64,000 bases of DNA, taken from the NCBI RefSeq assembly GCF_024298765.1, contig NZ_CP101211.1; one strand, 5' to 3'. The notes under the pieces were generated by a model. The model had not been told where the DNA came from, ran no database searches, and saw nothing but the letters and a program-made list of their open reading frames with translations. Shown in pieces: positions 29,120 to 51,190 of this stretch. The DNA is from Escherichia coli (GTDB lineage: Bacteria; Pseudomonadota; Gammaproteobacteria; Enterobacterales; Enterobacteriaceae). A program made the position numbers and the translations under genes. Within the stretch, counting starts at the first letter, position 1, and every line of letters begins with the position of its first letter.

Positions 29120-31709
<2,590 letters not shown>

Positions 31710-31714
31710 CTGAT

Positions 31715-32314
31715 ATTGAATATGAAATCAGTCAGGTGCAGCTCGGGCGACGTAAAACAACATACAGTGAGTGCATTGAAAGCCTGATCATTGATGAGAC
31801 CAGTTCCCGGGAATGGCTATATCATCCATTAATGCATGAACTTGAATCTGAACCTCTTCAGGAGTATCGGGGACGGGAGCCTTCAGAGGAAGGGCCTCTT
31901 CTTCAGCGCCTTGCTGACTGTAAGATGAAATTGCCTGATATCCTTCCGGGCAGTCATAACGCGCTAGTCAGGTTACAGCAGGATACGATTGTATGTCTGT
32001 GTCGGTTAACGGTTCGGGCTTATGACATCGCTCAGACCGATGAATTTCCTTTGTTCCTTCGCTATTTCAGGTTGCACTGCCTGGAAAACAGCGAACATGT
32101 CAGTTACGAAAGACTGATCTGCTGGCAGGAAATGATTTCAAAAACCCAGGAAGGCCAGTCCTTGACACAAAACGAACTTGAATATCTTCATGAGATTGTC
32201 CGCATCGCCTTTTACAATCACCGGCTTAACAATGTCAGTATTTCAGATGTTAAAAACCATGACACTGGAAAGAAGAGCGGCAGGGTAGAGTCACAAAACT
32301 ATTCACTTTTATAA
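31715..32314 (+). pseudogene. 3' part of the IS100-interrupted CoiA-like gene
   Basis: In-frame continuation (..DLPD|IEYEISQVQLGRR..) of the 29243 ORF after excising the IS. Confidence 0.5.
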
Positions 32315-34034: not shown

Positions 34035-35646
34035 CGTGGTTCCCTGTGGAGAAAAAGTTAAGCCAGTCGCCTAACCTCTCAGGCGCAATACTGGCGTCTG
34101 TAAGGACAGGGATGAGCTCATCAAGGAGACGGGTCCATTTTTCGTCACTGCGAAGCCCGTTATCTGTCTCAAACAGAGGGTCTGATACGCCATCTGTCAT
34201 GAGGATCAAGTGAGATACATCATTCCATTTACCCACGCTGATGCGGCCGCTAAACGAGGGGTCTGCGATAATGCTCTGGTCAAGAAAGCGGGTTTGTCCT
34301 GCGTATTCTCCGCTATCGGGATTTCCCAGTATCCTGACTTTACCGGAAGGGCTGTATGCACCTATCGCACCATCACCAAGCCAGAATGCAGCCGCAAACA
34401 GCTCGTTATCAGTTCGTAGCGCTACAGTTGCCAGTAGGGTTGTTGAATAGGATTTCACAGGTTGTTCTGCACAAATGGCTTCGTTCTGGATACTGTTGAC
34501 CGCGAGCGTAGCTGCCTGTTTAAAATGATGAAGCATGGCGTTTATGGTTGCCTGCTGATCGCTCCCTTCCCACGCCGTGATGTGCTGCTTTAGATGGACG
34601 CCTTTCAAACCACTGAGCTGATTGAAAAGGTAATCGCCAGCCGTTTGGACTGCAATCCGGGAGCCTTCCCGGGAATTTACCGCACTACCGGCCCCGTCTG
34701 CGACCAGCATGACAGACCATCCTGTTTCCTGGCAGTGGTTGATATAGAAGTCGTCATCTCTGAAGCTCCCGGCATGCTCATGAGATCGTCCCCGGCGACT
34801 GGCGGCAGCAATACGTATGTCACCCCTGACCAGGCCAGCAGCGTCCAGATGGGACTTAGGGTAGGAAGCGTCTGCTGGTGGCTCTACCACCTTCCACAGG
34901 CTTCTCGGATCGGGATTGACTATAAAAAGCTGTTTTGTTTCGCATTCGTCGTGCGAAGCGCATGACCAGAGTACTGAAAGCTCTATATCGCCGCTTTCGG
35001 TGGGTGTACCTGTCAGCAACTTATGCTCTTTGTCAAAGGTCAGGCCAATGTTCCTGGGAAAGACAACGTCCCTGACAGTAGCCTGCTGGCCCTCATCCAG
35101 AACTATAGCAACCGGCGAAGAGAAACGTTCGCCTGCGCGGGCGTTGGGAATAACTATTTTAGCTCTCGGGGGAACGGCAGGTGGCACAGCTAATCCGGCC
35201 CGCTGCTGGCCTGTCGGTATCTGCCCGGGTTTTAATACCAGGGAAGACAGGTTTTCGTCTTCCCTCTGTGCTGGTTTATCAAATTCGTAATAAGGCATCA
35301 GCTTCCAGAACGGAGGATGAGGTTCATTTTCTGGCAGGGGTTGCAGTAATGGTGTATCGGTAGCGTCAATGCCCGGGTTATCAGCATCACTTACGACCGT
35401 TTGTTGCTGATCGGAAAGGCTGGATGCTGACGAGGGGGCGATCTCTGCGTCGTTATAACCTTCGCTAACCCGCGCAGATAAACCCTGTGCAAGGCTCTCA
35501 ATCCGCTCTTTAAGCCGCATAATCTCTTCAGTAAGGGAAGGGTCGTGCGATAGAAGAAAAAGCCGCTCACCTTCTACAGGGTGGCCCAGCTCAGACAGCA
35601 CTAAGCGGATAATCTTCTCTTCAAGTAAAACATTTTGCGACATCAA
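34006..35646 (-). CDS. PP2C-family Ser/Thr protein phosphatase with long N-terminal extension
   Basis: PP2C-like blocks RGRSHEHAGSFRDDD, MLVADGAGS, LMTDGVSD; start overlaps end of the upstream vWA gene. Confidence 0.65.
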   Translation of the reverse strand: MMSQNVLLEEKIIRLVLSELGHPVEGERLFLLSHDPSLTEEIMRLKERIESLAQGLSARVSEGYNDAEIAPSSASSLSDQQQTVVSDADNPGIDATDTPLLQPLPENEPHPPFWKLMPYYEFDKPAQREDENLSSLVLKPGQIPTGQQRAGLAVPPAVPPRAKIVIPNARAGERFSSPVAIVLDEGQQATVRDVVFPRNIGLTFDKEHKLLTGTPTESGDIELSVLWSCASHDECETKQLFIVNPDPRSLWKVVEPPADASYPKSHLDAAGLVRGDIRIAAASRRGRSHEHAGSFRDDDFYINHCQETGWSVMLVADGAGSAVNSREGSRIAVQTAGDYLFNQLSGLKGVHLKQHITAWEGSDQQATINAMLHHFKQAATLAVNSIQNEAICAEQPVKSYSTTLLATVALRTDNELFAAAFWLGDGAIGAYSPSGKVRILGNPDSGEYAGQTRFLDQSIIADPSFSGRISVGKWNDVSHLILMTDGVSDPLFETDNGLRSDEKWTRLLDELIPVLTDASIAPERLGDWLNFFSTGNHDDRTIAVLW

Positions 35647-36683
35647 CCTCTCCCTCTGTTTACGTCGAAGTTAGTGTTTCCGCCATCATTGCTGAATGAC
35701 AGACCTGTTTCACACCACGGGCAGATCACGTCATCCGGGCCGTCAATGCACAGCAATTTTCCGCATGAGCACAGGGCAAACGCACTGGCATTACCGCAGT
35801 GAGGGCAACCCGGTACGCCATGCAGTTCGCTGGTGTTTACCTGCAAACCGGTAGCGGTGGCATCTGACCATGCAAAATAGTCTTCATCGATGGGATAGCA
35901 TCCGGCAATATTAAAGCTGTTCAGGTTCAGGCTGAAATCGAGCCCGGAAATCCTTGCTGGTGGCCGTTCATACTTCATCAGATACGGACGACGGGTCTTG
36001 CTGCAACGGCCGGTAAGCGTAACGCAGTTTTCGTCGTACGCTTTTACTGGCTCGTCCTTGGCCAGCCGGACTATGTATTCAGTCTGGCTGAGCTCAGGTT
36101 GTTTGTCGTCTCCGACGCTGCGGCTGTGCGCCGTAACCGAGGCTGTGATCCATTTGATGAAGCGGGTAAAGTCCCCTTCCTGAGACTCGGTGAACAGCAT
36201 GACATTCTCTGTCAGTTGCCGCAGGGTATTCAGGTCCGCTGACGGCCCCAGGCCAACGGCAATGAGATTCACTTTACTCGCGTAGTGATCCTTCCAGCGC
36301 TTCACTTCTGCGGTTGTGTCGTCAGTCGGACGTCCGTCGGTAAGGAGATACACGACGGGTTTCCAGTCGCCTTTAGCCTCATGAGTGGTTTTTCTGACCT
36401 GGGTATCAATTTGTACGGTCAGCTCACGCAATGCGGCCCCAAGGCTCGTACCGCCGCCAACGGGAAGGCGGGGAGGGTAGAACGAGGCAATTTCGTGAAG
36501 AGGTACAATCGTACGGGCTACACCGGCAAATGCGATTACCGAAACCCAGGCTGTTTCAAGTGCGTGTGGATCCTTTCTTAAATCTCCGATGATCATTTGC
36601 AGACCATCAGTCATTTTTTTCAGGTTTTCACCAATCATGGACTCTGAACAGTCCAGGACAAAAAACACGGGAAGGCGTCTCAT
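35643..36683 (-). CDS. vWA-domain protein with C-terminal Zn-ribbon (TerY-like member of the triad)
   Basis: Starts MRRLPVFFVLDCSESM (MIDAS DxSxS) with RBS gaggaaaatt; later LLTDGRPTDD; C-terminal CPHCG..CSCG..CPWC; the 414-aa track ORF has a spurious upstream extension. Confidence 0.65.
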   Translation of the reverse strand: MRRLPVFFVLDCSESMIGENLKKMTDGLQMIIGDLRKDPHALETAWVSVIAFAGVARTIVPLHEIASFYPPRLPVGGGTSLGAALRELTVQIDTQVRKTTHEAKGDWKPVVYLLTDGRPTDDTTAEVKRWKDHYASKVNLIAVGLGPSADLNTLRQLTENVMLFTESQEGDFTRFIKWITASVTAHSRSVGDDKQPELSQTEYIVRLAKDEPVKAYDENCVTLTGRCSKTRRPYLMKYERPPARISGLDFSLNLNSFNIAGCYPIDEDYFAWSDATATGLQVNTSELHGVPGCPHCGNASAFALCSCGKLLCIDGPDDVICPWCETGLSFSNDGGNTNFDVNRGRG

Positions 36684-36768
36684 AATTTTCCTCGTACGGC
36701 TGGTACGGCCAGCAGAAAACGTTGCTGTACAGAAAGGTGCTGCCCGGAAAGCAGCACCTTTCTGTCTG

Positions 36769-37410
36769 TCAGAGCACCAGCTGGATTTCTGGTGGAGGAG
36801 GGGGAAGGGTATCAGTTCCGTTATTGATCCCCGCGCTTGTGCTGCCGGAAGACACGCTGGCCGATACCCATTTAAAGAAACCTGCAAACGCGGTTGAATC
36901 TAGCGTCTCCAGAGACACAACCTTATCGGTGAGCTGTTTTAAGTGCTCATGGCCTGCTTTAGGACCAACGGCGCAGGCAATGATGGATCCGAATCCCCGG
37001 CCGCGAATCGCTTTTACCGCTTCACCGTACGCCAGGGCATCAGAAGGGGTTCCATCAGTCATCAGGAATACCAGAGGACGCCAGTCTCCTTTTGTATCAC
37101 CATCTGAGCGACGTACATCCCGTTCAACACACTGCATCAGACATTCAAGGGCAGCACCGGTGAACGTCCCGCCTGCGCTTGGCACAACGATGTCAGAAAA
37201 CTGGAAGTCTTCCAGCGGCGTGAGAGGAATGAACTCACGCGCCTCATTGTCATAGGTGATAATGGAGATATGAACGCTTTCGAGGGCGTAGGGATCCTGG
37301 CGAAGAGCGCTAAGCATCGCCTGAATTCCAACGTTAACGGAATGGATGGACTCACCGCGCATCGAGCCGGATGTGTCGATAACAAGGTAAACAGGCAGGC
37401 GGCGCATCAC
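36769..37410 (-). CDS. terY: Tellurite resistance vWA protein TerY
   Basis: 213 aa; MMRRLPVYLVIDTSGSM .. FLMTDGTPSD vWA/MIDAS; immediately upstream of terX. Confidence 0.7.
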   Translation of the reverse strand: MMRRLPVYLVIDTSGSMRGESIHSVNVGIQAMLSALRQDPYALESVHISIITYDNEAREFIPLTPLEDFQFSDIVVPSAGGTFTGAALECLMQCVERDVRRSDGDTKGDWRPLVFLMTDGTPSDALAYGEAVKAIRGRGFGSIIACAVGPKAGHEHLKQLTDKVVSLETLDSTAFAGFFKWVSASVSSGSTSAGINNGTDTLPPPPPEIQLVL

Positions 37411-38048
37411 ATGTAATTCCTCAGGTGCGAGACAAACGAATCTGATTCTGAAGGCTCACCAATTGCCCTGAGTTTCCAGCCTGTAGCCTCGCGTATCAGC
37501 TCGGCAAAAACCATGGAGCGCTGGCTGGCGAAGGCGGGTCCGCCAGAAAGATCGAATCGTGCCATTTCAATATTACGGGCATCTACTGCCCGGATGAAGG
37601 CATTCTGAACTTTACCAAAGTGCTGCTGGAGCTTTTCACCATTGTAGATCTGAACGATGAACACAATTTTCTCGTACTGAGCGTCAAGGGAATTCAGGCG
37701 CACAATAATTTGCTCATCGTCACCATCACCGGCTCCGGTTCGGTTATCGCCCGTCAGCCAGATATTTCCTGACTTATGGCGAAGGCTGTTGAAAAAGATG
37801 ATATCGCCATTCACAAGCGTTGGTTTACCATTTTCCACATTGCCGAGATCGGTCACCTTTCCGGCTGAATTACACAGGAAAGCGATCACATCAAGGTCGT
37901 ATTCTTCTTCTTTTTTACCAAAGATCCCGCCGAGGAAACCTTTCTTTTCCTCATTAATATCCCAACCCAGGCCGATAGTAACGGACGAGAGATCGTATTC
38001 ATTTTTTTTCAGGCTTACGCCCTGGCCTTTGCTCAGACTGACAGACAT
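37407..38048 (-). CDS. terX: TerD-family protein TerX
   Basis: 213 aa; [21 protein letters not shown] and GDNRTGAGDGDDE hallmark blocks of the TerD/TerZ/TerE family. Confidence 0.7.
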   Translation of the reverse strand: MSVSLSKGQGVSLKKNEYDLSSVTIGLGWDINEEKKGFLGGIFGKKEEEYDLDVIAFLCNSAGKVTDLGNVENGKPTLVNGDIIFFNSLRHKSGNIWLTGDNRTGAGDGDDEQIIVRLNSLDAQYEKIVFIVQIYNGEKLQQHFGKVQNAFIRAVDARNIEMARFDLSGGPAFASQRSMVFAELIREATGWKLRAIGEPSESDSFVSHLRNYM

Positions 38049-38070
38049 GACATCCCCTTAATTAATAAAA

Positions 38071-38709
38071 TTATAAGACCACGTTTACTTCTGGCGGCGG
38101 CGGTGGCAGGTCTTCAAGACCGATCACTTCTTTTTTGCTGGACTCCACTTTCTGACTGCCTACCGAAATGCTCGCACTGACCCATTTAAAGAAAGCTTTA
38201 ATCGTCGAACTGTCAGCTGTATCGAGCTGAACCACGATTTCAGTGATTTCTTTGAGGACGCTGGTATCGGCATCATGCCCGGCTGCACATGCCACAACAA
38301 CGCCGGTTCTGGCCGCTTTAAAGTCATTCAGGCCTTTACGCCAGTCATCATTCGGACTTCCATCCGTCATCAGGAATACAAGGGGACGCCAGTCACCTTT
38401 AGTGTCAGCCGTCGTTTTCTGTACTTCTTTGGCAATGGAGCTGGCCGTGAGGGAAAGCGCTTCGCCAAGAGAGGTGGTGCCGCTGGCTGTTAGTGCTGGC
38501 ATCTGGAAACTCAGGAGGTCTGTCAGGGGGACTGCCTGTCGGGCTGAAGAATCAAAGGTGATCACTGACACGTAAGCCGTTTCGAGTGCATACGGATCCT
38601 GTTTCAGCGTGGTAAGCAGCGTCTGAACGCCATTCTTAACCGCTTCGATAGGCTCTCCGTGCATAGAGCCGGACGTGTCGAGTAGCAGATATACGGGTAA
38701 GCGTCTCAA
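38071..38709 (-). CDS. terY: Tellurite resistance vWA protein TerY (second copy)
   Basis: vWA with RRLPVYLLLDTSGSM .. FLMTDGSPND; probable TTG start after RBS aaggaa giving ~212 aa (track ORF extends to 38790). Confidence 0.6.
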   Translation of the reverse strand: MRRLPVYLLLDTSGSMHGEPIEAVKNGVQTLLTTLKQDPYALETAYVSVITFDSSARQAVPLTDLLSFQMPALTASGTTSLGEALSLTASSIAKEVQKTTADTKGDWRPLVFLMTDGSPNDDWRKGLNDFKAARTGVVVACAAGHDADTSVLKEITEIVVQLDTADSSTIKAFFKWVSASISVGSQKVESSKKEVIGLEDLPPPPPEVNVVL

Positions 38710-39171
38710 ATGTAATTCCTTCTTAAGAGATCGGAAGAGGAGAGTAGTTTCAGGAAGAGGCCAGAGTTTGTAGATTTGATAAAACGGCACGACATCTGTC
38801 GGGTGGAGATTAAATACTCAGAAGCGGCATTAAAGAAATAAGTTAACCACCATTGAATTACCGACATGTGAATGGCCTCTTATCAGAGAAAAAAATTCAG
38901 ACCGTACTGGAATATAAATTTCTGAAAAAAACTCCGGCAAAAATAAACTTTCTTATGTATGAAAATCATCATACATCACAGATCTGCATGAATGGAGTGT
39001 AAATCGCCCAAAGATTGATGTGTAGCACAAGAGGATGTCAAGACACCAGGTTTTGTAGGCAGAAAGGCGCTGCTGACATTGCGGGAGGAGAATAGATCAA
39101 AACTCCGTCACGCAGATACAGAGGTGAAATATGACAAAACCGGGGTTTTCACCCCGGTCTGAGATTTAGCG

Positions 39172-39639
39172 TCAGGACTTTTTAGCGCTGTATTCTTTTA
39201 TCAGTTCATCAACGGAGTGCAGAGCCAGCTTCTCTACCGCTTCACTTCGGGTCGAGCCACTCAGCGCAGCCAGACGGTCAATTTTTCTTAAAATCCGCAT
39301 GCGTAGCGATAATGACACGGCTGTTTTTTTATCCTTATCGAGTACGACCTTCCCTGTGGACTCACCGGTTTTCAGTTCAGCATTCTGTGCGAGCGCTTCA
39401 TTCATCCGGCGAAGGGTCTTTTTATCCAGCTGGCCCGGATTAACGAGATGGTAGGAATGACCTGCCTTGCTGTATTTGATCTCCGCAGAATATGACTCGC
39501 GTAGCTCTTTGAGTGCCCGGGTTAATGTCGGCTCTGAGCATTCCAGACTGGTTATAATGTCGGCAGCGGAAACGGGCTTGCCGGTGCCCAGTAAGTTGGC
39601 AAGCTTAAAAATCCGGGCCTGTCTGGTATTTAATTGCAT
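39172..39639 (-). CDS. terW: Putative DNA-binding regulator TerW
   Basis: 155-aa basic ORF with HTH-like N-terminal segment, at the position terW occupies beside terY/terX in known ter islands. Confidence 0.5.
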   Translation of the reverse strand: MQLNTRQARIFKLANLLGTGKPVSAADIITSLECSEPTLTRALKELRESYSAEIKYSKAGHSYHLVNPGQLDKKTLRRMNEALAQNAELKTGESTGKVVLDKDKKTAVSLSLRMRILRKIDRLAALSGSTRSEAVEKLALHSVDELIKEYSAKKS

Positions 39640-39656
39640 CGTAAGATTTAGCCTGC

Positions 39657-40865
39657 TTAAAGGGTTAGTGGTTCAATAGGCTGAAAAATGAAGGTACTGC
39701 TCATCTTTCGAATAACCGGGTGATCGCCTAACGCTTCAACCGGATCAATGTGTTCTAAGCCTGCAAAATTTACTGACGACATCTGGCTGCGACTGCATTT
39801 GCAGGACAGGATATACTCATCCTCCAGATAGCCGGTCCGCTTACTGACCCGTTGCGTAAAGCCTGACACAATCACGTTGTCGAACGGTAGCGTATGTAAA
39901 ACGATACCGACCAGGCGGAACAAGCAGCCATGGACGTGGCGGGCATAGTTTTCGCGTACGGCTTTTTGCGTCATGGCTTTTTCCGTCAGCTCCGTGCCCC
40001 GGGCATTAACGCCGTAAATCTTATCAGGGAAATCTTCAATCTCAGCTAAATCAACATCCAGCAGGACTGCTGATAGCTCCGGCTTTACTTCAAATGCAAC
40101 AAGCGTTTCACGCGGCCATTCAGTTTCTGCCAGCACACCCGCCAGGTATGATTCGAAAAACGCGGCGTCTGTCCGGAACTGCTGCCGGGCATCTGCCTGA
40201 GCCGTGGCGAGCCGTTTTTCATGTTCTTCAGCCTCAAACTTCCAGTTTGCATACTGTTCGGCCCAGGCCGTCCGTTGTTGCTGGTACCGGTGCTGTCGAA
40301 GGGTATTCTCACGCTCCACATCAATCAGCTCCTGCTGCCACCGGCGAAGATTTTCGGCGTGGCGCTCAGCTTTAGCTGATTCCGATTCAAACCATTTACC
40401 CAGAAAACTAATGCCTTCGCTCTCGGCAGGCTTTTCCGGCAATGCAAGATAGTCTGGCTTTTCTGGACGCACCGGTGCCGGAACCTGAAAAGGCGACGTT
40501 CTGTTATGCAGGTATACTGCTTCCAGCTCTGCCCAGCTGATGCCTGTTTTAGGATCCGGCGTCAGCTCGTGAATATTACGGATTGCGGTCACCGCTGACA
40601 TGAGATCAGCGGCTTCCTCCTCAAGCGCCTGTCTGAGCCCCGGGTCGGTAGCCGTCCGGTTCCCACCTCCGGAACGCGCGGCCCGATCAAGCCGGGTACG
40701 GTAACTCAGCCCGGTACCGGGCAAGCCCAGATTGGCATAGGTCCCCCGGCTTCCAAAAGAAACAGAAGCACCTCTCGGCCCGACACTCAGGCTCGGTGCA
40801 CCGTTACTCAGGTTGAGGCGAACACCAGGAATAATGTTGATCGACTTTCTGAATCTGAACCCCAT
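39657..40865 (-). CDS. Hypothetical ter-associated protein with coiled-coil core
   Basis: 402 aa; N-terminus MGFRFRKSINIIPGVRLNLSNG..; central R/Q/E-rich helical region. Confidence 0.4.
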   Translation of the reverse strand: MGFRFRKSINIIPGVRLNLSNGAPSLSVGPRGASVSFGSRGTYANLGLPGTGLSYRTRLDRAARSGGGNRTATDPGLRQALEEEAADLMSAVTAIRNIHELTPDPKTGISWAELEAVYLHNRTSPFQVPAPVRPEKPDYLALPEKPAESEGISFLGKWFESESAKAERHAENLRRWQQELIDVERENTLRQHRYQQQRTAWAEQYANWKFEAEEHEKRLATAQADARQQFRTDAAFFESYLAGVLAETEWPRETLVAFEVKPELSAVLLDVDLAEIEDFPDKIYGVNARGTELTEKAMTQKAVRENYARHVHGCLFRLVGIVLHTLPFDNVIVSGFTQRVSKRTGYLEDEYILSCKCSRSQMSSVNFAGLEHIDPVEALGDHPVIRKMSSTFIFQPIEPLTL

Positions 40866-40875
40866 TATGATTTCC

Positions 40876-41835
40876 TTAATGATGCTGGGTCACGGTAAGT
40901 AATCTGATTCCATCAGCGCTTTGCTCGTTCTGTAACCCATAAAAACGAGCTCTGTCCAGAATGCCAGCCGCCCAGCGGCGATGTGTGGCGGGTTCACACA
41001 TTGCTCCCTGCGACTTAAACACGGCCTGGGTAGAGTTCAGGATCCGCAGAGCGTCAGAATGCTCACCCTGAGTGACCATCAGCGCGTTTTGAATGACCTC
41101 TATCTGACCCGGGTGAATGGCCGTTTTCCCAACAAGCCCATGTGCCATATCAAGAGCCAGCTCTCTGGCCATTACGGCATGATCGTCAATATGCTCACAT
41201 ACGGGCGCGGTCAGGGCAAAATCACGCGGGCCGAAGACCGAAACGAGCATTTTGATGACGTAGCCCATCGGGCTGTCATACAGCGTCAGGTCCCGGGGAC
41301 GGCGAAGCGACACAACGTTCATAAGATCGTTGCCGCCGATTCGAAGCGCAATAATGCGGTCGTGGCAGGGATGTTCCACCAGACGGGTGGCCAGCTCCCG
41401 CATCTGAACCACGTCAAAGACGTCTTCTGTTTCCAGCGTTGGCATCATGCACAGGTGAGTCCCGCCCATGATATCCCACCATTCAGCTAACGAACTGAGG
41501 GTAAATTTCGGCAACACAAACCCGTCGACAGCGGAAAGATCATAATGCGCTTTTAACCATCTGCCCATTTCGGCATGCCGGGGGCGAATGAACACCAGAG
41601 GCCAGTCATTTTTACCCAGGCTATGCATGCTGTTACTGAGCTCGTGCAGCAGGTGCTCCAGATTTTTGAGGGCGACGGGGATGTCTGCTTCACTGACAGC
41701 ATCCTCCAGGCAAATCACCAGAGAGCGCAAACCCGGGATTTTCCCGTGCAGGACGGCATCAGCAATATCTTCCCGTGTTGCAGGCATGTATAGCGTGGCT
41801 CCCAGATTCCAGGGAGAAAGACGATTTTTCATCAA
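40876..41835 (-). CDS. HpcH/HpaI aldolase / citrate lyase beta (CitE)-like TIM-barrel protein
   Basis: 319 aa; N-terminal LYMPATRED and later RIGGNDL blocks resemble the CitE family. Confidence 0.55.
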   Translation of the reverse strand: MMKNRLSPWNLGATLYMPATREDIADAVLHGKIPGLRSLVICLEDAVSEADIPVALKNLEHLLHELSNSMHSLGKNDWPLVFIRPRHAEMGRWLKAHYDLSAVDGFVLPKFTLSSLAEWWDIMGGTHLCMMPTLETEDVFDVVQMRELATRLVEHPCHDRIIALRIGGNDLMNVVSLRRPRDLTLYDSPMGYVIKMLVSVFGPRDFALTAPVCEHIDDHAVMARELALDMAHGLVGKTAIHPGQIEVIQNALMVTQGEHSDALRILNSTQAVFKSQGAMCEPATHRRWAAGILDRARFYGLQNEQSADGIRLLTVTQHH

Positions 41836-42911
41836 AGTACCTTCTTGATAATGGTTACAGCCCGATACTGGCCGAGGGTTCCCCCCATTTCTGTAACAAC
41901 TATTCCCTTTTCACGAGCAAGCCCTACAAGCAAGGCAACGTCCGGGTCGTCAATAGAACGCACAAATACATGGTCCGGTACCCGACGTAATACAGCCCGG
42001 GTTGCTTCAGCAATACCGGGTTTTATACGATTGACGCTGTCCACTTTAAATTCATCGGCCAGGAACGCGATAACGTCGCGACTTGTCTGCCATAAGATCC
42101 GGGCTGACTCCGTATTCCAGCTCAGGGGAGCGAGGGATGACGGGGTTAACTTCTTACGGAAATGAGCGACGGTATCGACAAGCATCCGGCTGCATTCGAA
42201 TTCACTGAGATGCTCGCAAACCATGCACCCGTGTAATCCTTCAGAGGACCACACTGACCGGGAGATCAGGCCTGACACCGGCGCACCCATGATGCCAAAA
42301 GGAATGAGCCAGTCATCATCACTGGCTGCAAGCCAGGAGCAGCCACAGGGATCGGCCAGGACAACCAGTCGCGGCTGCTCAGGATAGCCCGGGCGATCTT
42401 TCAGTGCGCGTACAAGCTCTCCGGTAATTGCGCCTTTACCTGTCCATCCGTCAACAAAGACAATACCGCTGGTACCATGCCGCTCTTCAATGACGTCGAG
42501 GGCTGCACCGTCAATTCCACGATCCCGGATAATGCTGATACCGTAATGCCATGAGGTTTTCCCCATGTCACGCAGGGCCTGGTGCAGCATAACGCCGAGC
42601 GGCACGCCAGCCCTGACAAGACTGGCCAGTACAATGGGCTCATCACCAAAGCGTTTGGCCAGAGCAATAGCGAGCTGTGTGACTTCTTTTGCAAGTCTCT
42701 CTGCGCCCCGATCCAGCGCCCGGTGAAACAAATCAAGATGCCATTGTGTTGGCGCTGGCTCCTGACTGAGCATGTCCGAATAATGTTTCTTCCCTGACTG
42801 AATCAGCTCTTCTTTTTGCTCAACCGGCGTCATCTCAATGACAACCGGCTTTAGCAGAAATTCCACGTCACCGGGCTGGTATGAGCCGGTAAATGTGTCA
42901 TGTGGCTGCAT
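41832..42911 (-). CDS. Ter-associated protein (family sometimes annotated cysteine protease StiP)
   Basis: ORF at the position of this family within ter biosynthetic modules; start set at internal ATG overlapping the HAD stop (track start 42977). Confidence 0.4.
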   Translation of the reverse strand: MQPHDTFTGSYQPGDVEFLLKPVVIEMTPVEQKEELIQSGKKHYSDMLSQEPAPTQWHLDLFHRALDRGAERLAKEVTQLAIALAKRFGDEPIVLASLVRAGVPLGVMLHQALRDMGKTSWHYGISIIRDRGIDGAALDVIEERHGTSGIVFVDGWTGKGAITGELVRALKDRPGYPEQPRLVVLADPCGCSWLAASDDDWLIPFGIMGAPVSGLISRSVWSSEGLHGCMVCEHLSEFECSRMLVDTVAHFRKKLTPSSLAPLSWNTESARILWQTSRDVIAFLADEFKVDSVNRIKPGIAEATRAVLRRVPDHVFVRSIDDPDVALLVGLAREKGIVVTEMGGTLGQYRAVTIIKKVL

Positions 42912-42912
42912 T

Positions 42913-43686
42913 TTAATTTTCTCCAAAAATTCGCTGTGAAATGGCATCTGCAAACTGACTCTGACGCGGGATGCCAAACCAGCTGCACAGTTTCATAAAA
43001 CGATGATCGCTCAGGCTGTCGCCCAGGCCAATTACGGGGAAGACTCCGCGTTCAGCCCGAAGTTTTTCAAGCAGCCATCTGACGGCCAGCCCTTTCTCAA
43101 CCGGGGTGGGAAGCCAGGCCACGTTATTACTGTTGCGGTGGATGTAGAAGCCCTCGGTCGGAAACACCGTTTCTATCTCATCTGCAATGGCATTGAGCTC
43201 GTCAAGGCGGGTGCTGTCGCGGTGCTTCATCACCATATAAACCGCCGTTTCACCGTATTCGAAGTTCAGCCTTGCCCAGGCATTGATCCCTTTTGCGTCC
43301 ATCATTTCAGTGATCAGACGCTGCATCGATGTCAGCTTTTCCTGGTAGGGAGCCAGCTGGCCAAGCATATGGGCCTTCCACTCCTCGTCGGGTTTGCCTT
43401 CAGGCGTGAGAATGACGGCCCCGTGCGTGGTGATTGCCCAGGAGTGGAAAGGGATCCGGACGCGGCTGATTTCTTCAGTTCCCCGGGCGGTAACAGGTAT
43501 GAGTTCAGCCTGCTCCAGGAGCCAGTCCACCAACATGGACTGTTCTTCCGTCATAAAGCTTCGTGGATTCAGGGTGCGATCAACGGCACCGGTACGGAAT
43601 GGCTCCAGGGCCAGCTCGTCCACCATTTTACGACGGGTCTGAAAGAGCGTGTCGTCAAGGTCGCTCAGAACAACGGGTTTATTCAT
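42913..43686 (-). CDS. HAD-superfamily hydrolase
   Basis: Starts MNKPVVLSDLDDTLF (HAD motif I DxDxT); the 112-codon upstream extension in the track lacks an RBS and overlaps the next gene. Confidence 0.65.
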   Translation of the reverse strand: MNKPVVLSDLDDTLFQTRRKMVDELALEPFRTGAVDRTLNPRSFMTEEQSMLVDWLLEQAELIPVTARGTEEISRVRIPFHSWAITTHGAVILTPEGKPDEEWKAHMLGQLAPYQEKLTSMQRLITEMMDAKGINAWARLNFEYGETAVYMVMKHRDSTRLDELNAIADEIETVFPTEGFYIHRNSNNVAWLPTPVEKGLAVRWLLEKLRAERGVFPVIGLGDSLSDHRFMKLCSWFGIPRQSQFADAISQRIFGEN

Positions 43687-44827
43687 AGGTAACAATCTCC
43701 ACGACGGGCGCAACCTCAGCCAGGGCTTTAAGAAGCTGCGTGTCAATACTTTCTGCGGGTGTCTCAGTACACACAAGAATACGGTCAAACTGCTGGTGGG
43801 CGACGTTATAGACAAAATTGGGGATGCCCAGCCCGTAGTTATCCGTAAAGGAAATGGCGGACTCAATGGCATAACCAACGGCGATAGGGGAGCGGGTGGT
43901 CGAACCATAAAGTGCCTGTGCTCCGGCAGCTTCGAGCCGTTCAGCAAGCAGGAACGGCTCCCAGACGAATTCCCCGGTCCCGAGAACCAGAATACGTTCC
44001 CCCTTGCGGACGGAGACCTCATGGCCGAGATCGGCCGCAGGTGCGAGCATCCCCAGTCGACCCCAGGACTGTTTTCCCAGGATGTCCCATTCTCCGCGTG
44101 AAGTTACGTTGACTTTCGGCATGTCCGGGACAGGTGCATCAGGTAATGGGGTCCATCCCCACTGACCGCTTACAAGCGAAACCGAAGTGACGGGCAAGGA
44201 TGTGCGCTCCGACAGGGCGTTGCTACTCCAGTCGGTAAGCGTAACGGCGATAACCTGTTCAATATGTTGAAGCTTGCCGGTATTACGCAGGGCAGAAAGC
44301 AGGTTAATAAAGGTATTACCGGTGGTTGCCTCGTCATCAATCAAAACCAGCGTTCGTGCGTTGGTAACACGACGTCTTTTCTCTTCATCATCTGGCAGAT
44401 AGATCAGATGATCGGTGGCGTGGCTGTGTTCTTCCTTGAACTCGCAAAGTAACGTGCCATCAACCGGGTGACGGGTAGAGGTCAGATAGACAGATTCACG
44501 ATGCTGGTGGCGCACTTCATCAAACACACCGGCCCCTAGCCCAACGGCGGTTTCAGCCATACCGATAAAAAGTACGGGCCCTGTCAGCGTTGCGGGGAAC
44601 TGGCTGGCAAGCTGTCTGTAGGCCTGCCGCATGACTGAGGGTGGCACGGGAATGTGCCTGCCGAGTACTTTGCTGACAAACAGAAAGGCGCGTTTCGGGT
44701 TACGTCTTTCAGCGATATCAAACAGGTCATCGAGCGAAACATCACCCTGGTCGCGGGTTACCTGTATCGTACCGCATGAGAGGGTACGGCGATAAATCAT
44801 ATCTTCGAGGGTATCAGACATAAACAC
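43679..44827 (-). CDS. Phosphoribosyltransferase-domain protein
   Basis: 382 aa; PRPP-binding motif VLIDDEATTGNT typical of type I PRTases. Confidence 0.65.
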   Translation of the reverse strand: MFMSDTLEDMIYRRTLSCGTIQVTRDQGDVSLDDLFDIAERRNPKRAFLFVSKVLGRHIPVPPSVMRQAYRQLASQFPATLTGPVLFIGMAETAVGLGAGVFDEVRHQHRESVYLTSTRHPVDGTLLCEFKEEHSHATDHLIYLPDDEEKRRRVTNARTLVLIDDEATTGNTFINLLSALRNTGKLQHIEQVIAVTLTDWSSNALSERTSLPVTSVSLVSGQWGWTPLPDAPVPDMPKVNVTSRGEWDILGKQSWGRLGMLAPAADLGHEVSVRKGERILVLGTGEFVWEPFLLAERLEAAGAQALYGSTTRSPIAVGYAIESAISFTDNYGLGIPNFVYNVAHQQFDRILVCTETPAESIDTQLLKALAEVAPVVEIVTYE

Positions 44828-44830
44828 GCC

Positions 44831-45889
44831 TTAATTCAGATGGTTAGAGAGTGATTCCGGGTAAACGATGACATCTGTGATGGATCTCACTGCAACCGGA
44901 GAAAAGGTATTTCTGGCGCTCTGGATCACCGCATCTTCAGACATCAGACCGAGCTTAAAGGCAGCAAACAACCCGGGAAGGTTCACCCCGCTGTGAAGGG
45001 TATAACCCACCCCGCCTGACGGACGCATGTTGGTTTCAAGCAGCACCGGGTTGCCATTCACATCGTTTCGCGTCTGAACATTCACCAGCCCGTCGGCCTT
45101 CATAACCCGGGCGCAGTCACAAGCCAGTTCCCAGGCGCTTCCTTCGTTTACCAGATACTGGATAGCCCCTTCCTTACGGCGTCCCACGGCTGCGAGTATT
45201 TCGCCCTTATCCGCGAGGATATCGACGGAAAATTCCGGGCCTGGCAGGTACGGCATCAAAACAAGGGGTTTAAACGACTCAGAAGCCGATGCTGCTGCAA
45301 TATACTGTTGCGGACTGACCAGACGATGTTCGGGATGATTAAAGACGGCCATGGGCGAAGCACTGTCATCAAAGCGCCAGAATCCCATGCCATAGATACC
45401 CGTCACCGGCTTCACGCATACCGGGCTGTCCGAGAACGGCGGGGCCGCGAGGTGCGTCTTTAATTCTGCCAGCGTATTCACCCGCCAGGACGGTACGACC
45501 GGGAGCCCGTTTTGCTCCATAAACTGAGCAAAAGTAACTTTTTCGTCAGCCAGAGTTAACCAGTCGACGCCTGTTGCACCGGTAGTAAGGGTGGCTCCGG
45601 TCGATTCAATGGCTGAACGGTGTTCTTCAAACCACTGGCTGTTACGGCCAGTATGAATATGGTGGATGCCGTAGGTCTGAATGGTTTCCTGAATAAACTG
45701 AAGACGTTTTTGAGGATCTTCAGGTTCAGTCAAAGAATAATCGGCAACGGAAAGAATTTCATGTCTTTCGTTACGGTGGGAGGCAAATACGGTAATAGCA
45801 AAATTATTTTTTTGTGCAAATGATTTTACCCCCTGAATAATATCTCGCTGGGAGGACAAACCTTCCATAAACCAAATTTTCTTGTTCAT
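44831..45889 (-). CDS. ATP-grasp-fold ligase-like protein
   Basis: 352 aa; size, position and Gly-rich segments consistent with the ATP-grasp gene found beside PRTase in ter islands. Confidence 0.5.
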   Translation of the reverse strand: MNKKIWFMEGLSSQRDIIQGVKSFAQKNNFAITVFASHRNERHEILSVADYSLTEPEDPQKRLQFIQETIQTYGIHHIHTGRNSQWFEEHRSAIESTGATLTTGATGVDWLTLADEKVTFAQFMEQNGLPVVPSWRVNTLAELKTHLAAPPFSDSPVCVKPVTGIYGMGFWRFDDSASPMAVFNHPEHRLVSPQQYIAAASASESFKPLVLMPYLPGPEFSVDILADKGEILAAVGRRKEGAIQYLVNEGSAWELACDCARVMKADGLVNVQTRNDVNGNPVLLETNMRPSGGVGYTLHSGVNLPGLFAAFKLGLMSEDAVIQSARNTFSPVAVRSITDVIVYPESLSNHLN

Positions 45890-46212
45890 TTTTTTTAATT
45901 ATCCGGAACGCCATGCAAATTTATGATTGAGAAGTGAGTCTATGAGTGTCTACGCTACATGTCAATCATAATATGATTAATAACTTCAGTGGTTATGGAG
46001 TGCGTCAGTGTTTTTTTTAGTGCCTTATAACGTATTGATATTTAAATTAAAAATAGAAAAATGAACACCATGAAAAGGATTTATTTTTGTGTTTTTGAAG
46101 AAAACTACCAAAATTTCCCTTGTCAGAGAACTTCATCATGATATGATTTTCTTCGTCAGTTACTAAATATACCTTTGATTGTCTCGGTCATTACCATTTT
46201 AAGGAATAAAAC
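45890..46212. promoter_or_regulatory. AT-rich divergent intergenic region between ATP-grasp (-) and terZ (+); presumed promoters
   Basis: 323-bp AT-rich non-coding stretch between divergent operons; RBS aaggaat before terZ. Confidence 0.35.
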
Positions 46213-46794
46213 ATGGTTTCATTAGTTAAGAACCAGACGGTATCACTCAGCAAAGAATCATCTGCATTAAGCCAGCTTCATTTCGGTCTCGGTTGGGATC
46301 CGGTTAAGAAAAAAGGTCTTCTTGGAGGATTGTTTGGAGGCAACGACTCAATCGATCTCGATGCTGGCTGCGTATTAATGGACAGCACCGGTAAAACAAT
46401 TGACACCATCTGGTTCCGCAAACTGGAATCCACCTGCGGCGCTGTTGTGCACAGTGGCGATAACCTGACCGGTGAGGGTGACGGTGACGATGAGGTGATT
46501 AAGGTCAACCTCTCCCGACTGCCTGCAAACGTTGAATACCTGGCGTTTACGGTAAACAGCTTCCGTGGTCAGTCGTTCAATGACGTCGAAAACGCGTTCT
46601 GCCGCGTTGTCGATCAAACCGGCAAAGAGCTGGCTCGCTACAAGCTGACTGAGCAGGGCTCACATACCGGGATCGTTATTTCTTCGCTGCGCCGTAATAA
46701 CGGCAACTGGGACTTTACCGCCCTTGGCCATGCCTGTCGCGGCCGCACAATTGACGATATGCACTCCGATATCGTTTCAGCGGTTATTCGCTAA
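46213..46794 (+). CDS. terZ: Tellurite resistance protein TerZ (TerD family)
   Basis: 193 aa; FGLGWD and [13 protein letters not shown] blocks. Confidence 0.8.
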   Translation: MVSLVKNQTVSLSKESSALSQLHFGLGWDPVKKKGLLGGLFGGNDSIDLDAGCVLMDSTGKTIDTIWFRKLESTCGAVVHSGDNLTGEGDGDDEVIKVNLSRLPANVEYLAFTVNSFRGQSFNDVENAFCRVVDQTGKELARYKLTEQGSHTGIVISSLRRNNGNWDFTALGHACRGRTIDDMHSDIVSAVIR

Positions 46795-47951
46795 TGAACC
46801 TGACGCCGGGGGGCAATGCCCCCGTTCCAGCCCAGGAGTTGCGGGTCCGGATCACCTCGGGCGGCCAGGTGGATGCTTCGGCGTTTCGCCTGTATGCCGA
46901 CGGGAAGGTGCAGGGTGATGCGGACATGGTGTTTTATGGTCAGCCACGTAACGATGATGGTACCGTCAGCCTGGTCAGTGAAGGCCAGTACTCAACCTTT
47001 ACTGTCGCGCTCAACCGGCTGAAACCTGATGTCCAGAAAATTGCGTTCACCGTGACCTGTGACGGTGGGCAGACGGTGTCCGGTCTTCGTAATCTTTCCA
47101 TCGACGTGGAGCAAGGGGCTACCGGCCTGGTTAGCGGCAGTGTCGAACTGAGCGGCCGTCAGGAAGCAGCCTTAATTCTGGGTGAATTTTACCGTCGTAA
47201 TAATGACTGGAAATTCCGCTTCGTTGCGCAGGGGTTCAACGGTGGACTTAAACCGCTGGCAGAGCATTTCGGCGTAAATATTGCCGACGAACCGGCTCCC
47301 GCAGCCCCGACTCCTCCGGTTGTAACCCCTCCGCCAGTTGAGACAAAAATCAGCCTGAGCAAGGTATCGCTGACAAAAGAGAAGCCTGCAATCAGCCTGA
47401 CCAAACGGGATAACTTCGGTGAAATCCGGATCAACCTGAACTGGCACCGGGGCAGCGGCAAATCAGGCTTTGCAGGCATGTTCGGCTCCAAAGGAATCGA
47501 CCTGGATCTGGGGGCCTTTGTTGAGCTTCAGGACGGGTATAAATCGGTCATTCAGGCGCTCGGTAATGCATTCGGTAATTATCGCGATGAACCGTATGTT
47601 CAGCTCAAGGGCGATGACCGGACGGGTGATGTATCAGACGGCGAGTGGCTGCATATCAATGGACGTGAATGGAAGCATATCCGCGAAGTGCTGATTTACG
47701 CCTTTATTTATGAAGGTGTTCCCAGCTGGGACAAGACTGATGGTGTGGTCACCATTCATGTGCCGGATCAACCGCCCATTGAGACCCGCCTGACCGAAGG
47801 TGAAAACCGTCGCACATTGTGCGCCATTGCCAGACTCGTAAACGAAAACGGCGCAATTAAAGTCGAGCGAATTAACCAGTACTTCAAAGGCCAGGACGAA
47901 ATGGACCGGGCATTTGGCTGGGGATTTCGCTGGAGCGCCGGTTCTAAATAA
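46794..47951 (+). CDS. terA: Tellurite resistance protein TerA
   Basis: 385 aa; start overlaps terZ stop; TerD-like N-terminal domain plus C-terminal extension. Confidence 0.75.
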   Translation: MNLTPGGNAPVPAQELRVRITSGGQVDASAFRLYADGKVQGDADMVFYGQPRNDDGTVSLVSEGQYSTFTVALNRLKPDVQKIAFTVTCDGGQTVSGLRNLSIDVEQGATGLVSGSVELSGRQEAALILGEFYRRNNDWKFRFVAQGFNGGLKPLAEHFGVNIADEPAPAAPTPPVVTPPPVETKISLSKVSLTKEKPAISLTKRDNFGEIRINLNWHRGSGKSGFAGMFGSKGIDLDLGAFVELQDGYKSVIQALGNAFGNYRDEPYVQLKGDDRTGDVSDGEWLHINGREWKHIREVLIYAFIYEGVPSWDKTDGVVTIHVPDQPPIETRLTEGENRRTLCAIARLVNENGAIKVERINQYFKGQDEMDRAFGWGFRWSAGSK

Positions 47952-47973
47952 CACAGCAACAAAGGAAACAGGT

Positions 47974-48429
47974 ATGAGCTTTTTCGACAAGGTAAAAGGT
48001 GCCATTAACTCTGGCCGGGACGAACTGACCCGCCAGGTTGGTCGTTTCAAAAACAAAAAATTTATGCACGGCACCGTTGCTGTATGTGCCCGTATTGCCG
48101 TATCGAGTGACGGCGTGAGTTCGGAAGAAAAGCAGAAAATGATGGGCTTTCTTCGCTCTTCAGAAGAGCTGAAGGTCTTCGATACCAATGAGGTGATCGA
48201 GTTCTTCAATAAACTGGTTTCAAGCTTCGATTTCGATGTTGAAATCGGCAAGGGCGAAACCATGAAATACATCCTGGCGCTGAAAGATCAGCCTGAGGCC
48301 GCTCAGCTGGCCTTACGTGTTGGTATTGCCGTTGCGAAAAGTGACGGTAACTTCGATCAGGACGAGAAACTGGCCTCCCGCGAGATCGCTATCGCGTTGG
48401 GCTTCGACCCGGCTGAATTTGGCCTCTGA
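47974..48429 (+). CDS. terB: Tellurite resistance protein TerB
   Basis: Starts MSFFDKVKGAIN with RBS aaggaaacagg; 151 aa (track ORF begins 60 nt upstream inside terA end). Confidence 0.75.
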   Translation: MSFFDKVKGAINSGRDELTRQVGRFKNKKFMHGTVAVCARIAVSSDGVSSEEKQKMMGFLRSSEELKVFDTNEVIEFFNKLVSSFDFDVEIGKGETMKYILALKDQPEAAQLALRVGIAVAKSDGNFDQDEKLASREIAIALGFDPAEFGL

Positions 48430-48451
48430 TCCACATCCCTAAGGGTAAAAT

Positions 48452-49492
48452 ATGGTTTCCACACACATCGGCTTCCCGACTGAAACGGTCATTGTTTTCA
48501 TTGCGCTTTCAGTCGGTGCCATCTTTATTGACCTGTTTATGCACCGTGATGACAAGCCCATTTCCCTGAAGAGTGCGGCGCTCTGGTCCGTATTCTGGGT
48601 TGTGGTTGCGATGGCATTTGCCGGTTTCCTCTACATCCACCACGGTGCTGAGGTTGCCAGCCTGTTTGTAACGGGTTATGCGCTGGAGAAAGTGCTGTCG
48701 GTCGACAACCTGTTTGTCATGATGGCCATCTTCTCCTGGTTCGCCGTTCCTGATCGTTACCGCCACCGTGTTCTCTACTGGGGGATCATTGGTGCCATCG
48801 TCTTCAGGGGCATCTTTGTCGCCATCGGTACGAGCCTGCTGAGTCTGGGGCCGTATGTTGAAGTTGTCTTCGCTATCATCGTCGCCTGGACGGCGGTCAT
48901 GATGCTTAAAAGCGGTGATGACGATGATGAAATTGAGGATTATTCCCAGCATCTGGCTTACCGCATGGTTAAACGCTTCTTCCCTATCTGGCCGAAGCTC
49001 AGAGGTCATGCTTTCCTGCTTAACCAGAAGGAAGTGGATGCCGAACTGGCGAAACCAGAAAACAGCGATGTCACCATTGGCCGTGGTAAAAAGGCGGCGC
49101 TGTATGCGACCCCTCTGTTCCTGTGTGTGGCCGTGGTTGAACTCTCGGATGTTATGTTTGCGTTTGACTCGGTACCGGCAATCATTGCCGTCAGTCGTGA
49201 ACCGCTTATCGTCTATAGTGCCATGATGTTTGCTATCCTGGGCCTGCGTACTCTGTACTTTGTCCTTGAAGCACTGAAACAGTACCTGGTTCATCTGGAG
49301 AAGGCCGTTATCGTGCTGCTGTTCTTCATCGCGGCAAAACTGGGCCTGAATGCGACCGATCACATTTGGCATCATGGTTACAGCATCGCGGCGACAACCA
49401 GCCTGTATGTTGTACTGGGTGTTTTGGCGCTGGGCATTCTCGCAAGCGTCATGTTCCCGGGCAAACCTGAATCTGAGGAAAAGGGGAGCTGA
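48452..49492 (+). CDS. terC: Integral membrane protein TerC
   Basis: 346 aa, multiple transmembrane helices; position in operon. Confidence 0.8.
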   Translation: MVSTHIGFPTETVIVFIALSVGAIFIDLFMHRDDKPISLKSAALWSVFWVVVAMAFAGFLYIHHGAEVASLFVTGYALEKVLSVDNLFVMMAIFSWFAVPDRYRHRVLYWGIIGAIVFRGIFVAIGTSLLSLGPYVEVVFAIIVAWTAVMMLKSGDDDDEIEDYSQHLAYRMVKRFFPIWPKLRGHAFLLNQKEVDAELAKPENSDVTIGRGKKAALYATPLFLCVAVVELSDVMFAFDSVPAIIAVSREPLIVYSAMMFAILGLRTLYFVLEALKQYLVHLEKAVIVLLFFIAAKLGLNATDHIWHHGYSIAATTSLYVVLGVLALGILASVMFPGKPESEEKGS

Positions 49493-49540
49493 TCCCCTGA
49501 AGTGTTAACCTGAACAATTACTAATCGAAGAGGTTATTTT

Positions 49541-50119
49541 ATGAGTGTTTCTCTTTCCAAAGGCGGGAACGTCTCCCTGAGTAAAGCAGCTCCGTCAATG
49601 AAAAACGTCCTGGTGGGCCTTGGCTGGGATGCGCGTTCAACAGACGGTCAGGACTTTGACCTGGATGCTTCAGCATTCCTGCTGGCCGCAAATGGCAAAG
49701 TGCGCGGCGATTCAGATTTCATCTTCTATAACAACCTGACGTCATCTGACGGTTCCGTAACCCATACCGGTGATAACCGTACCGGTGAAGGTGATGGTGA
49801 TGATGAATCGCTGAAAATTAAACTGGACGCCGTCCCGTCTGATGTTGACAAGATCATCTTCGTTGTCACTATCCATGATGCTCAGGCTCGTCGCCAGAGC
49901 TTTGGTCAGGTATCCGGTGCGTTTATTCGCCTGGTCAATGACGATAACCAGACTGAAGTCGCTCGCTACGATCTGACCGAAGATGCGTCCACTGAGACTG
50001 CCATGCTGTTCGGCGAGCTGTATCGCCACAATGGTGAGTGGAAATTCCGCGCAGTGGGCCAGGGTTATGCTGGTGGTCTGGCATCTGTATGTGCTCAGTA
50101 CGGCATTAACGCGTCCTGA
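49541..50119 (+). CDS. terD: Tellurite resistance protein TerD
   Basis: 192 aa; [33 protein letters not shown]. Confidence 0.85.
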
Positions 50120-50186
50120 TCGAAAAGTAACTTTTCACCCGGGGCTGTTAATGCAGCCCTCATTCAACTGTTTGCAGGAGCTAAAA

Positions 50187-50762
50187 ATGGCAGTTTCTCT
50201 CGTAAAAGGCGGCAACGTATCTCTGACCAAAGAAGCACCAACCATGAATATCGCTATGGTTGGCCTCGGCTGGGATGCCCGTGTAACTGACGGTCAGGCT
50301 TTTGACCTGGACGCTTCCGTGTTCGCAGTAGGCGAAGACGGTAAAGTGCTGTCAGATGCGCATTTCATTTTCTTCAATAACAAAACCAGCCCTGATGGCG
50401 CGGTAGAGCACCAGGGCGACAACCGTACCGGTGAAGGCGACGGTGACGATGAGCAGGTCAAAATCGATCTGACCAAAGTCTCAGCAGATATCAAAAAACT
50501 GGTGTTTGCCGTTACCATCTATGATGCAGAAGCGCGTAAACAAAACTTCGGCATGGTGAGCAACAGCTTCATGCGCGTTTACAACAACGACAACGGCACG
50601 GAAATTGCCCGTTTCGATCTGTCTGAAGATGCCTCAACCGAAACCGCTATGGTCTTCGGTGAACTGTATCGTCATGGCGCTGAGTGGAAGTTTAAAGCTG
50701 TCGGTCAGGGCTTTGCCGGTGGCCTGGCGGCTCTTGCCTCCCAGCACGGCGTTAACATCTAA
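50187..50762 (+). CDS. terE: Tellurite resistance protein TerE
   Basis: Starts [15 protein letters not shown] with RBS gcaggag; 191 aa; paralog of terD. Confidence 0.8.
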
Positions 50763-50779
50763 AACAACGCTGAATCATA

Positions 50780-50804
50780 CCCCGGCAATGCCGGGGTTTT
50801 TTTT
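50780..50804 (+). terminator. Intrinsic terminator after terE
   Basis: CCCCGGCAATGCCGGGG hairpin followed by TTTTTTTT. Confidence 0.65.
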
Positions 50805-51190
50805 GGTTGCGATCCGCTTTCAGGAGGGAGTAGTAGAAAGGGGACTGGAAATTTCAGAAAGCAGGTCATGTTAATTCAGACCTGAGCCTTTTAAAGGCAG
50901 GAAACGGATTTATCTCTGGTTGCTGGTTAAAGCCGGTATTCCGTGCCTTTTATCAACAGAATGCCCCTCTGATATATGTTACTTTTGCGGTTTATGAAGG
51001 AACGGGATCTGGAACATAAGATACCCGGTCAATCAAAATTCCAGTTCAACAGGTATAGAAACTTCAGCGTGATGAAATATGGTGTCACACCATATATACG
51101 CCTCACCAGAAATCCAGCGTCCTGAACTAAGCCTGGGGAACATATATAAGCGCTGCGCTTTAAAAATAATCAAAAATCAGGAGAGTTAAT

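Follow-up and report, generated by a model that had tools for sequence, protein, structure and literature searches.

The Ter-associated enzyme operon of an Escherichia coli plasmid and the riboside-like product it may make

The ter genes affect resistance to tellurite, zinc, phages and colicins as well as gut fitness (PMC8115787 among other sources), and the cluster is carried by about 18% of complete Escherichia coli genomes, by plasmids of Klebsiella, Salmonella and Enterobacter, and by the chromosomes of Yersinia, Proteus and others. Its least-studied half is an operon of enzyme genes that most experimental papers leave unnamed. In 2012, a Ter-linked module of these enzymes was predicted to make a nucleoside-like metabolite (Anantharaman, Iyer, Aravind; Mol Biosyst 8:3142; summarised in PMC11994780 and PMC7824862), and the Pfam models ATPgrasp_Ter, PRTase_2/TRSP, PELOTA_1 and C-C_Bond_Lyase were named for it. 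Here we describe such an operon at positions 39657-45889 of a 64,000-nt stretch of E. coli DNA (contig NZ_CP101211.1, assembly GCF_024298765.1), the whole of which is called the window below. As far as the 2012 module can be followed through these summaries, the locus has the same five families and the same association with TerB, TerD and TerC, and differs in that a DUF4236 gene is added after the lyase gene and before terW; nothing essential differs. The locus is a classical Enterobacterial example of an already known module, and the copy is a common plasmid allele. Common E. coli IncHI2 plasmids such as NZ_AP023198.1 (pMTY18780-1_IncHI2) share the region 39100-46300 at 100% identity, the identity to NZ_AP023198.1 over 27100-58300 being 99.99%, and 956 of 5426 complete E. 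coli genomes match 39100-46300 at at least 90% identity (698 chromosomes and 287 plasmids). What the present analysis adds are refinements only, concerning which genes are core and which accessory, the fold of StiP, the identity of a "trehalose phosphatase" in the Protein Data Bank (PDB), gene fusions, and paired operators.

A second precedent concerns the chemistry. In CriT/CrpP of the Haemophilus influenzae Bcs3 system, a phosphoribosyltransferase (PRTase)-fold enzyme and a HAD phosphatase form an established two-step route from phosphoribosyl pyrophosphate (PRPP) to a riboside (PMC10299916). Like the locus described here, CriT/CrpP and the Thermobacillus composti enzyme (PDB 8A0C, 7SHG) combine a PRPP-using PRTase-fold enzyme with a HAD-type phosphatase that subsequently removes the 5-phosphate. 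Unlike it, they act on an elongating polysaccharide and are encoded in capsule loci, whereas there is no glycan machinery here; the Ter module, for its part, combines two PRTase-fold proteins with a C-C lyase, an ATP-grasp ligase and a domain of the RNA-binding type.

The six genes are contiguous on the minus strand, and PGAP annotates each of them as an intact coding sequence, without frameshifts or internal stops. Gene limits given here are those of PGAP, which differ slightly from the longest open reading frames (ORFs). The first gene of the operon (44831-45889; PGAP "ATP-grasp") encodes an ATP-grasp ligase matching PF15632 (ATPgrasp_Ter, E=1.7e-37), in which the lysine and E-x-N-x-R residues K160, E285, N287 and R289 are invariant across 57 homologues. 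It is followed by a type I PRTase (43679-44821; PGAP "phosphoribosyltransferase") composed of a PRTase_2 domain (PF15609, E=5.7e-64) and a C-terminal TRSP domain (PF12500, E=1.4e-23). PRTase_2 resembles nucleobase PRTases, and in its loop LVLIDDEATTGNT the residues D, D, E, T, G and T are invariant, the PRPP loop DDEATTGNT conforming to the canonical type I pattern of four hydrophobic residues, two acidic residues and xxx-T-G-x-T. The third gene, which PGAP calls a hypothetical protein, encodes a HAD-IIB-type phosphatase (42913-43686, taken instead of a 369-amino-acid ORF reaching 44022). Its product matches the NCBIfam HAD-IIB models TIGR01486 and TIGR01484 below their cut-offs, and D9, D11 and T13 of the DxDxT motif, T66, K198, and G222-D223-S224 with D227 of the GDSxxD motif, which together cover HAD motifs I-IV, are invariant in 74 homologues; it belongs to the sugar-phosphate phosphatase subfamily. 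A StiP family gene (41832-42911) and the gene of a CitE/HpcH-like TIM-barrel C-C lyase (40876-41832) complete the enzyme set, and the sixth gene (39657-40865; PGAP "DUF4236") encodes a DUF4236 protein.

An earlier reading of this DNA, made from the letters alone and hereafter called the sequence-only reading, had described six contiguous, tightly spaced or overlapping minus-strand genes divergent from terZABCDEF, and had named the ATP-grasp, type I PRTase, HAD, StiP-like and CitE/HpcH-like TIM-barrel families. Its gene layout is confirmed, with junctions of -8 to +10 nt among the six genes and with terZABCDEF annotated by PGAP on the plus strand from 46213; the motifs that it quoted are present in the PRTase (VLIDDEATTGNT) and in the HAD protein (LSDLDDTLF). 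Profile and PDB matches bear out the five families, though only weakly the CitE/HpcH relationship of the lyase, no gene being assigned to an unrelated one and none carrying an inactivating frameshift. As a unit, its six-gene set is corrected in detail: all six genes do adjoin, but terW was omitted and the DUF4236 gene falls outside the conserved enzyme set. In the PDB sequence search, matches were only marginal for PRTase_2, the lyase and the ATP-grasp protein, and nothing useful was returned for StiP or DUF4236. None of the seven proteins, TerW included, has a significant match in PADLOC-DB 2.0, in which only marginal matches to PRTase_III-A (8.5e-4) and to a WYL helix-turn-helix (HTH) region (4e-5) were seen.

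StiP is the member whose family name is the least helpful. The protein, named "cysteine protease StiP family protein" by PGAP, matches PF11202 (StiP, E=3.9e-89) and PF15608 (PELOTA_1, E=2.3e-25), so that the "StiP-like" label of the sequence-only reading holds at the level of the family; in detail it is corrected, as the protein is predicted to consist of a second PRTase fold and an L7Ae/Pelota-like RNA-binding-type domain, and not of a protease fold. The best structural neighbours of StiP are the CriT-type and T. composti ribofuranosyltransferases (8A0C, 7SHG). A PPi-loop-like SLxRxGxPxG motif and a TGKG phosphate loop are invariant in the family, including D154, G155, W156, G158, K159 and G160, and the loop IVFVDGWTGKG has one acidic residue and a spacer two residues shorter than that of the canonical PRPP loop. 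The closest parallel for a PRTase that touches RNA is PyrR, a bifunctional uracil phosphoribosyltransferase and attenuator of pyr mRNA, in which RNA is bound by the PRTase domain itself, whereas in StiP the L7Ae-like domain is separate and the N-terminus carries a helical extension. A cysteine-protease identity is not borne out, since no cysteine is invariant among 29 family members and the predicted fold is non-proteolytic. The name "cysteine protease StiP", used by PGAP and Pfam and now spread to thousands of records, conflicts with this predicted fold.

The lyase matches PF15617 (C-C_Bond_Lyase) with E=8.2e-114, and its matches to the wider CitE/HpcH superfamily are weak (RipC, 1.7e-8; CitE, 2.6e-4; citrate lyase PDB 3QLL, 0.0036). 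Residues E43, D44, R83, E134 and D169 are invariant across 45 diverse sequences. In other organisms the lyase is found fused in three arrangements, as StiP-PELOTA-lyase, as lyase-PRTase_2-TRSP, and as lyase-HAD, which is confirmed with E=1e-21. The three fusion types, in each of which the lyase is the common partner, are a separate line of evidence for a joint function of the enzymes.

Conservation of the operon was examined by a degenerate-peptide scan built from a 14-sequence lyase alignment, taking one genome per species, which returned 80 loci, 77 of them including the ter side; as the 80 loci are mostly Enterobacterales, the presence and absence statistics that follow are taxonomically narrow. 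Gene order beside the ter genes is conserved in the 80 species loci, and in Enterobacterales loci the operon adjoins ter. Among the 77 loci, PRTase_2 is full-length in all 77, StiP in 75 (the other two being partial) and HAD in 70, and the lyase is present in 77 of 77 by construction, being the query. Full-length TerW is found in 70 loci (one more being partial), and terW lies after the lyase gene in 70. The ATP-grasp protein is full-length in 53 loci, internally deleted in one and missing from 23. Loci that lack it leave a gap of only 300-600 bp between terZ and the PRTase gene, and three species keep an ATP-grasp remnant of about 60 codons; together with the one internally deleted copy, this argues for repeated loss of the gene from a five-gene ancestor. 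The ATP-grasp enzyme is dispensable in many lineages. Losses by clean deletion or down to a remnant are seen in loci L010, L028, L038 and L077 and in about 19 loci of Xenorhabdus, Proteus and Shewanella; such loci keep the other four enzyme genes intact and are natural four-gene variants. A recognisable HAD gene is absent from several Xenorhabdus species.

Beyond the narrow census, metagenomic relatives of 31-38% identity keep the enzyme set beside TerD, TerB and TerC. One distant locus has PRTase_2, HAD, StiP and the lyase followed by TerD-TerB-TerC-TerD, and another has TerD-TerD followed by ATP-grasp, PRTase_2, HAD, StiP and the lyase. The enzyme set is intact, conserved, co-regulated, and both physically and evolutionarily tied to TerD, TerB and TerC. 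The present locus holds PRTase_2 with TRSP, a HAD protein with intact motifs, a predicted second PRTase fold with a Pelota-type domain, and the lyase and ATP-grasp genes in one operon, linked to TerD, TerB and TerC, all of which characterise the five-gene module. Members of the lyase family also occur elsewhere: in locus L083 (10001-10876) and locus L084 (2971-3846), a 31%-identical member stands without Ter or PRTase_2/StiP genes, adjoining an unannotated 291-amino-acid ORF and an OprD-type porin, so that the family is not exclusive to Ter modules.

The organisation of the operon points to a common control with its divergent partner. Starting from the ATP-grasp gene, successive genes are 9 nt apart, overlap by 8 nt, are 1 nt apart, overlap by 1 nt (TGATG) and are 10 nt apart, and terW follows after a further 17 nt. 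The terW gene (39172-39639, minus strand; PGAP "TerW") encodes an HTH regulator with weak HTH_11 and WYL-type HTH matches, and directly 3' of it lies a terminator-like hairpin (39160-39137 on the minus strand), identified by consensus match only, with a 10-bp stem containing 6 G-C pairs and a T-rich tail. On the basis of the tight spacing and this hairpin, the transcription unit likely comprises seven genes, the six described and terW as the last. RNA-seq in Pectobacterium supports this call, showing the five enzyme genes as one operon that is co-regulated with terZABCDE (PMC7843439).

Divergent from it on the plus strand, terZABCDEF occupies 46213-52432, and the 323-bp intergenic region contains two promoter-like sites and two copies of a 15-bp palindrome. 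The promoter-like site of the enzyme operon (45937-45965, minus strand; TTGACA-17-TAGACT) agrees with the consensus at 10 of 12 positions and, like that of terZ (46120-46147; TTGTCA-16-TATGAT), is a consensus match only. A perfect palindrome, AATCATAATATGATT (45964-45978), abuts the -35 hexamer of the enzyme-operon site and is a candidate TerW operator, and a second copy with 2 mismatches, CATCATGATATGATT (46134-46148), lies over the -10 of the terZ site. In an alignment of the intergenic regions of 54 species, the two palindromes are the two longest blocks conserved at at least 90%. A TerW-protected palindrome has been placed in the intergenic region between the enzyme operon and terZ, with both operons co-repressed (PMC7843439), and by analogy TerW probably binds the two palindromes on this plasmid. 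The third TerW-type palindrome, reported before terY1 for Pectobacterium (PMC7843439), was not found in the window when up to 3 mismatches were allowed.

From these features we propose that the locus forms the biosynthetic part of the Ter system of stress and phage resistance and makes a riboside from PRPP, a reading to which we give a probability of about 0.6. In the proposed pathway, PRTase_2 would move ribose-5-phosphate from PRPP onto a base-like acceptor, the CitE-like lyase would make or trim this acceptor or its precursor, and the ATP-grasp ligase, where present, would amidate it. The HAD enzyme would then strip the 5'-phosphate, leaving a riboside, that is, a nucleoside-like molecule; this step fits the synthase-phosphatase logic of other HAD-IIB systems. 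StiP could be a second, divergent PRPP-binding enzyme or a sensor, touching RNA through its L7Ae-like domain. TerW would repress both divergent promoters through the two palindromic operators, and the enzymes and terZABCDEF would thereby be co-regulated. In the least supported step, the product would act on, or be sensed by, a membrane complex of TerB, TerD and TerC. Given the CriT/CrpP precedent, the acceptor need not be a nucleobase. A more elaborate version, which we regard as possible though clearly on the doubtful side, is that the product is something other than a conventional free nucleoside: either the HAD enzyme and both PRTase-fold proteins assemble an unusual riboside whose acceptor comes from the lyase and is no nucleobase, or the L7Ae-like domain of StiP delivers or senses the ribosyl compound on a specific RNA. 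Were it true, translation under phage or metal stress would be linked to a signal derived from PRPP.

Several points weigh against the biosynthetic proposal. What the acceptor is and what the lyase does are guesses, and TerB and TerD are presumed to be the receptors from gene neighbourhood only. StiP may be non-catalytic, since its PRPP loop is shortened (VDGWTGKG). About 30% of species have lost the ATP-grasp gene, and a few the HAD gene. A HAD protein of the 6D3V type, of which more is said below, reportedly hydrolyses trehalose 6-phosphate (T6P) in a Mg-dependent manner (Cross et al. 2018), this being the only biochemical report on a member of the family. None of the five enzymes has a demonstrated product, substrate or activity in the Ter context. 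That the nucleoside-like product is a computational proposal only, as the sequence-only reading had presented it, agrees with the literature: papers of 2021-2025 call the cluster putative and repeat the prediction without testing it, and no experimental identification of the product was found in the literature searched up to 2026. Finally, terZ-F alone gives tellurite resistance to E. coli K-12 (PMC8115787); the classical phenotype can thus do without the module, which must have another role or a modulatory one.

The alternatives divide according to which domain or name is taken as the guide. If the RNA-binding-type domain of StiP is given precedence, the module would act on or through RNA, StiP with its PELOTA domain being a PyrR-like sensor of a nucleotide or PRPP that binds a kink-turn-like RNA and controls translation or RNA fate, or else transferring a (phospho)ribosyl group or a base onto RNA. 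We consider this unlikely: Rfam gave no candidate RNA, neither in the window nor, with a permissive threshold, in the locus, the StiP-lyase fusion of some organisms suits a pathway enzyme better than a regulator, and the SLxRxGxPxG and TGKG phosphate-binding motifs of StiP have stayed invariant. Following the CriT/CrpP capsule system more closely, the PRTase-fold and HAD pair could add an O-linked ribofuranose to a sugar, a polyol or an envelope glycan, resulting in an envelope modification and not in a nucleoside; the structural neighbours of StiP are of this kind, but the absence of glycan machinery from the locus and the resemblance of PRTase_2 to nucleobase enzymes make this improbable.

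A further alternative takes the database names literally, with StiP as a cysteine protease and the HAD enzyme as a trehalose-6-phosphate phosphatase, the operon then combining proteolysis and trehalose metabolism and forming no single pathway. The PGAP name of StiP supports this, as does the deposition of PDB entries 6D3V and 6CJ0 as trehalose phosphatase, and Reichert 2013, as related by a citing paper, described StiP of A. baylyi as a protease that is required for tellurite resistance. We hold it to be very improbable in view of the missing invariant cysteine and the fusions that join StiP and HAD to the same lyase, and the "trehalose phosphatase" itself leads back to Ter. The 6D3V/6CJ0 protein from Pseudomonas aeruginosa aligns with the HAD protein of the window over its full length (E=2.7e-43, about 45% identity by residue count), and a 99.6%-identical gene lies on the P. 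aeruginosa plasmid CP109686.1 (locus L089, 8992-9750), where the order is PRTase, "trehalose phosphatase", StiP, HpcH lyase, HAD-IB, TerD and, further on, TerB, TerC, TerD, TerD, with an ATP-grasp gene upstream. Thus the 6D3V/6CJ0 crystal structure is that of a Ter-module enzyme. Its gene shares with the HAD gene of the window the PRTase-HAD-StiP-lyase order beside TerD, TerB and TerC, and the protein differs in having been deposited and studied as a trehalose enzyme; the name is now also used as the annotation on CP109686.1. Neither the window locus nor the Pseudomonas locus encoding the 6D3V-type protein contains a T6P synthase or another trehalose gene, and for this reason T6P may be a surrogate substrate in place of a glycoside phosphate.

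Identification of the product would tell whether Ter, like many newer defence systems, signals through a small molecule. Useful starting points are the four-gene variants, which define a minimal set, the structure of a member that already exists under another name, and StiP as a predicted PRTase with an RNA-binding domain.

The remaining gene of the operon is of a different nature. The DUF4236 protein matches PF14020 only over residues 3-56 (E=1.2e-21) and is an accessory, variable member. Full-length copies occur in 4 of 77 species loci and partial ones in 2 more. The gap between the lyase gene and terW is shorter than 400 bp in most of the 73 loci having both genes; the DUF4236 gene has been inserted between the two. 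In a 97%-identical Citrobacter locus (L002) a 323-bp deletion lies inside the gene at about 11557. Psychromonas ingrahamii (L090) has a full-length, 41%-identical homologue between TerD genes with the enzyme module not nearby, and Truepera has a full-length relative without any ter context. Taken together, the rarity of the insert and these relatives without the module show that DUF4236 is associated with Ter in some lineages and lies outside the enzyme set. Several phage protein families of unassigned function match its N-terminal 60 residues, and in PHROGs the DUF4236 N-terminus was all that found a match.

Beyond the terW terminator (39137-39160), a second Ter accessory cluster lies on the same strand at 32481-38709, consisting of a vWA protein (terY), the TerD-family terX, another vWA protein, a TerY-C metal-binding protein, a PP2C phosphatase and a helix-hairpin-helix protein, and it is predicted to be a phosphorylation-switch module. 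Next to it, at 29273-32314, IS100 (istA/istB, 29842-31643) is found between a 180-amino-acid CoiA-family fragment and a 210-amino-acid hypothetical ORF, and appears to have split a CoiA-like gene on insertion. Positions 1-27099 of the window (G+C 35-46%) have 39% positional identity to NZ_AP023198.1 and are not collinear with it, which indicates an indel or a rearrangement; the corresponding region of NZ_AP023198.1 carries IncHI transfer genes (trhU, trhN, trhI) and many hypothetical genes. On the other side, about 3 kb past terF, lies a type II toxin-antitoxin pair (55319-56942), in which the gene of a HipA-family kinase toxin comes after an HTH antitoxin-like gene; an HNH-motif gene stands next, at about 57734.

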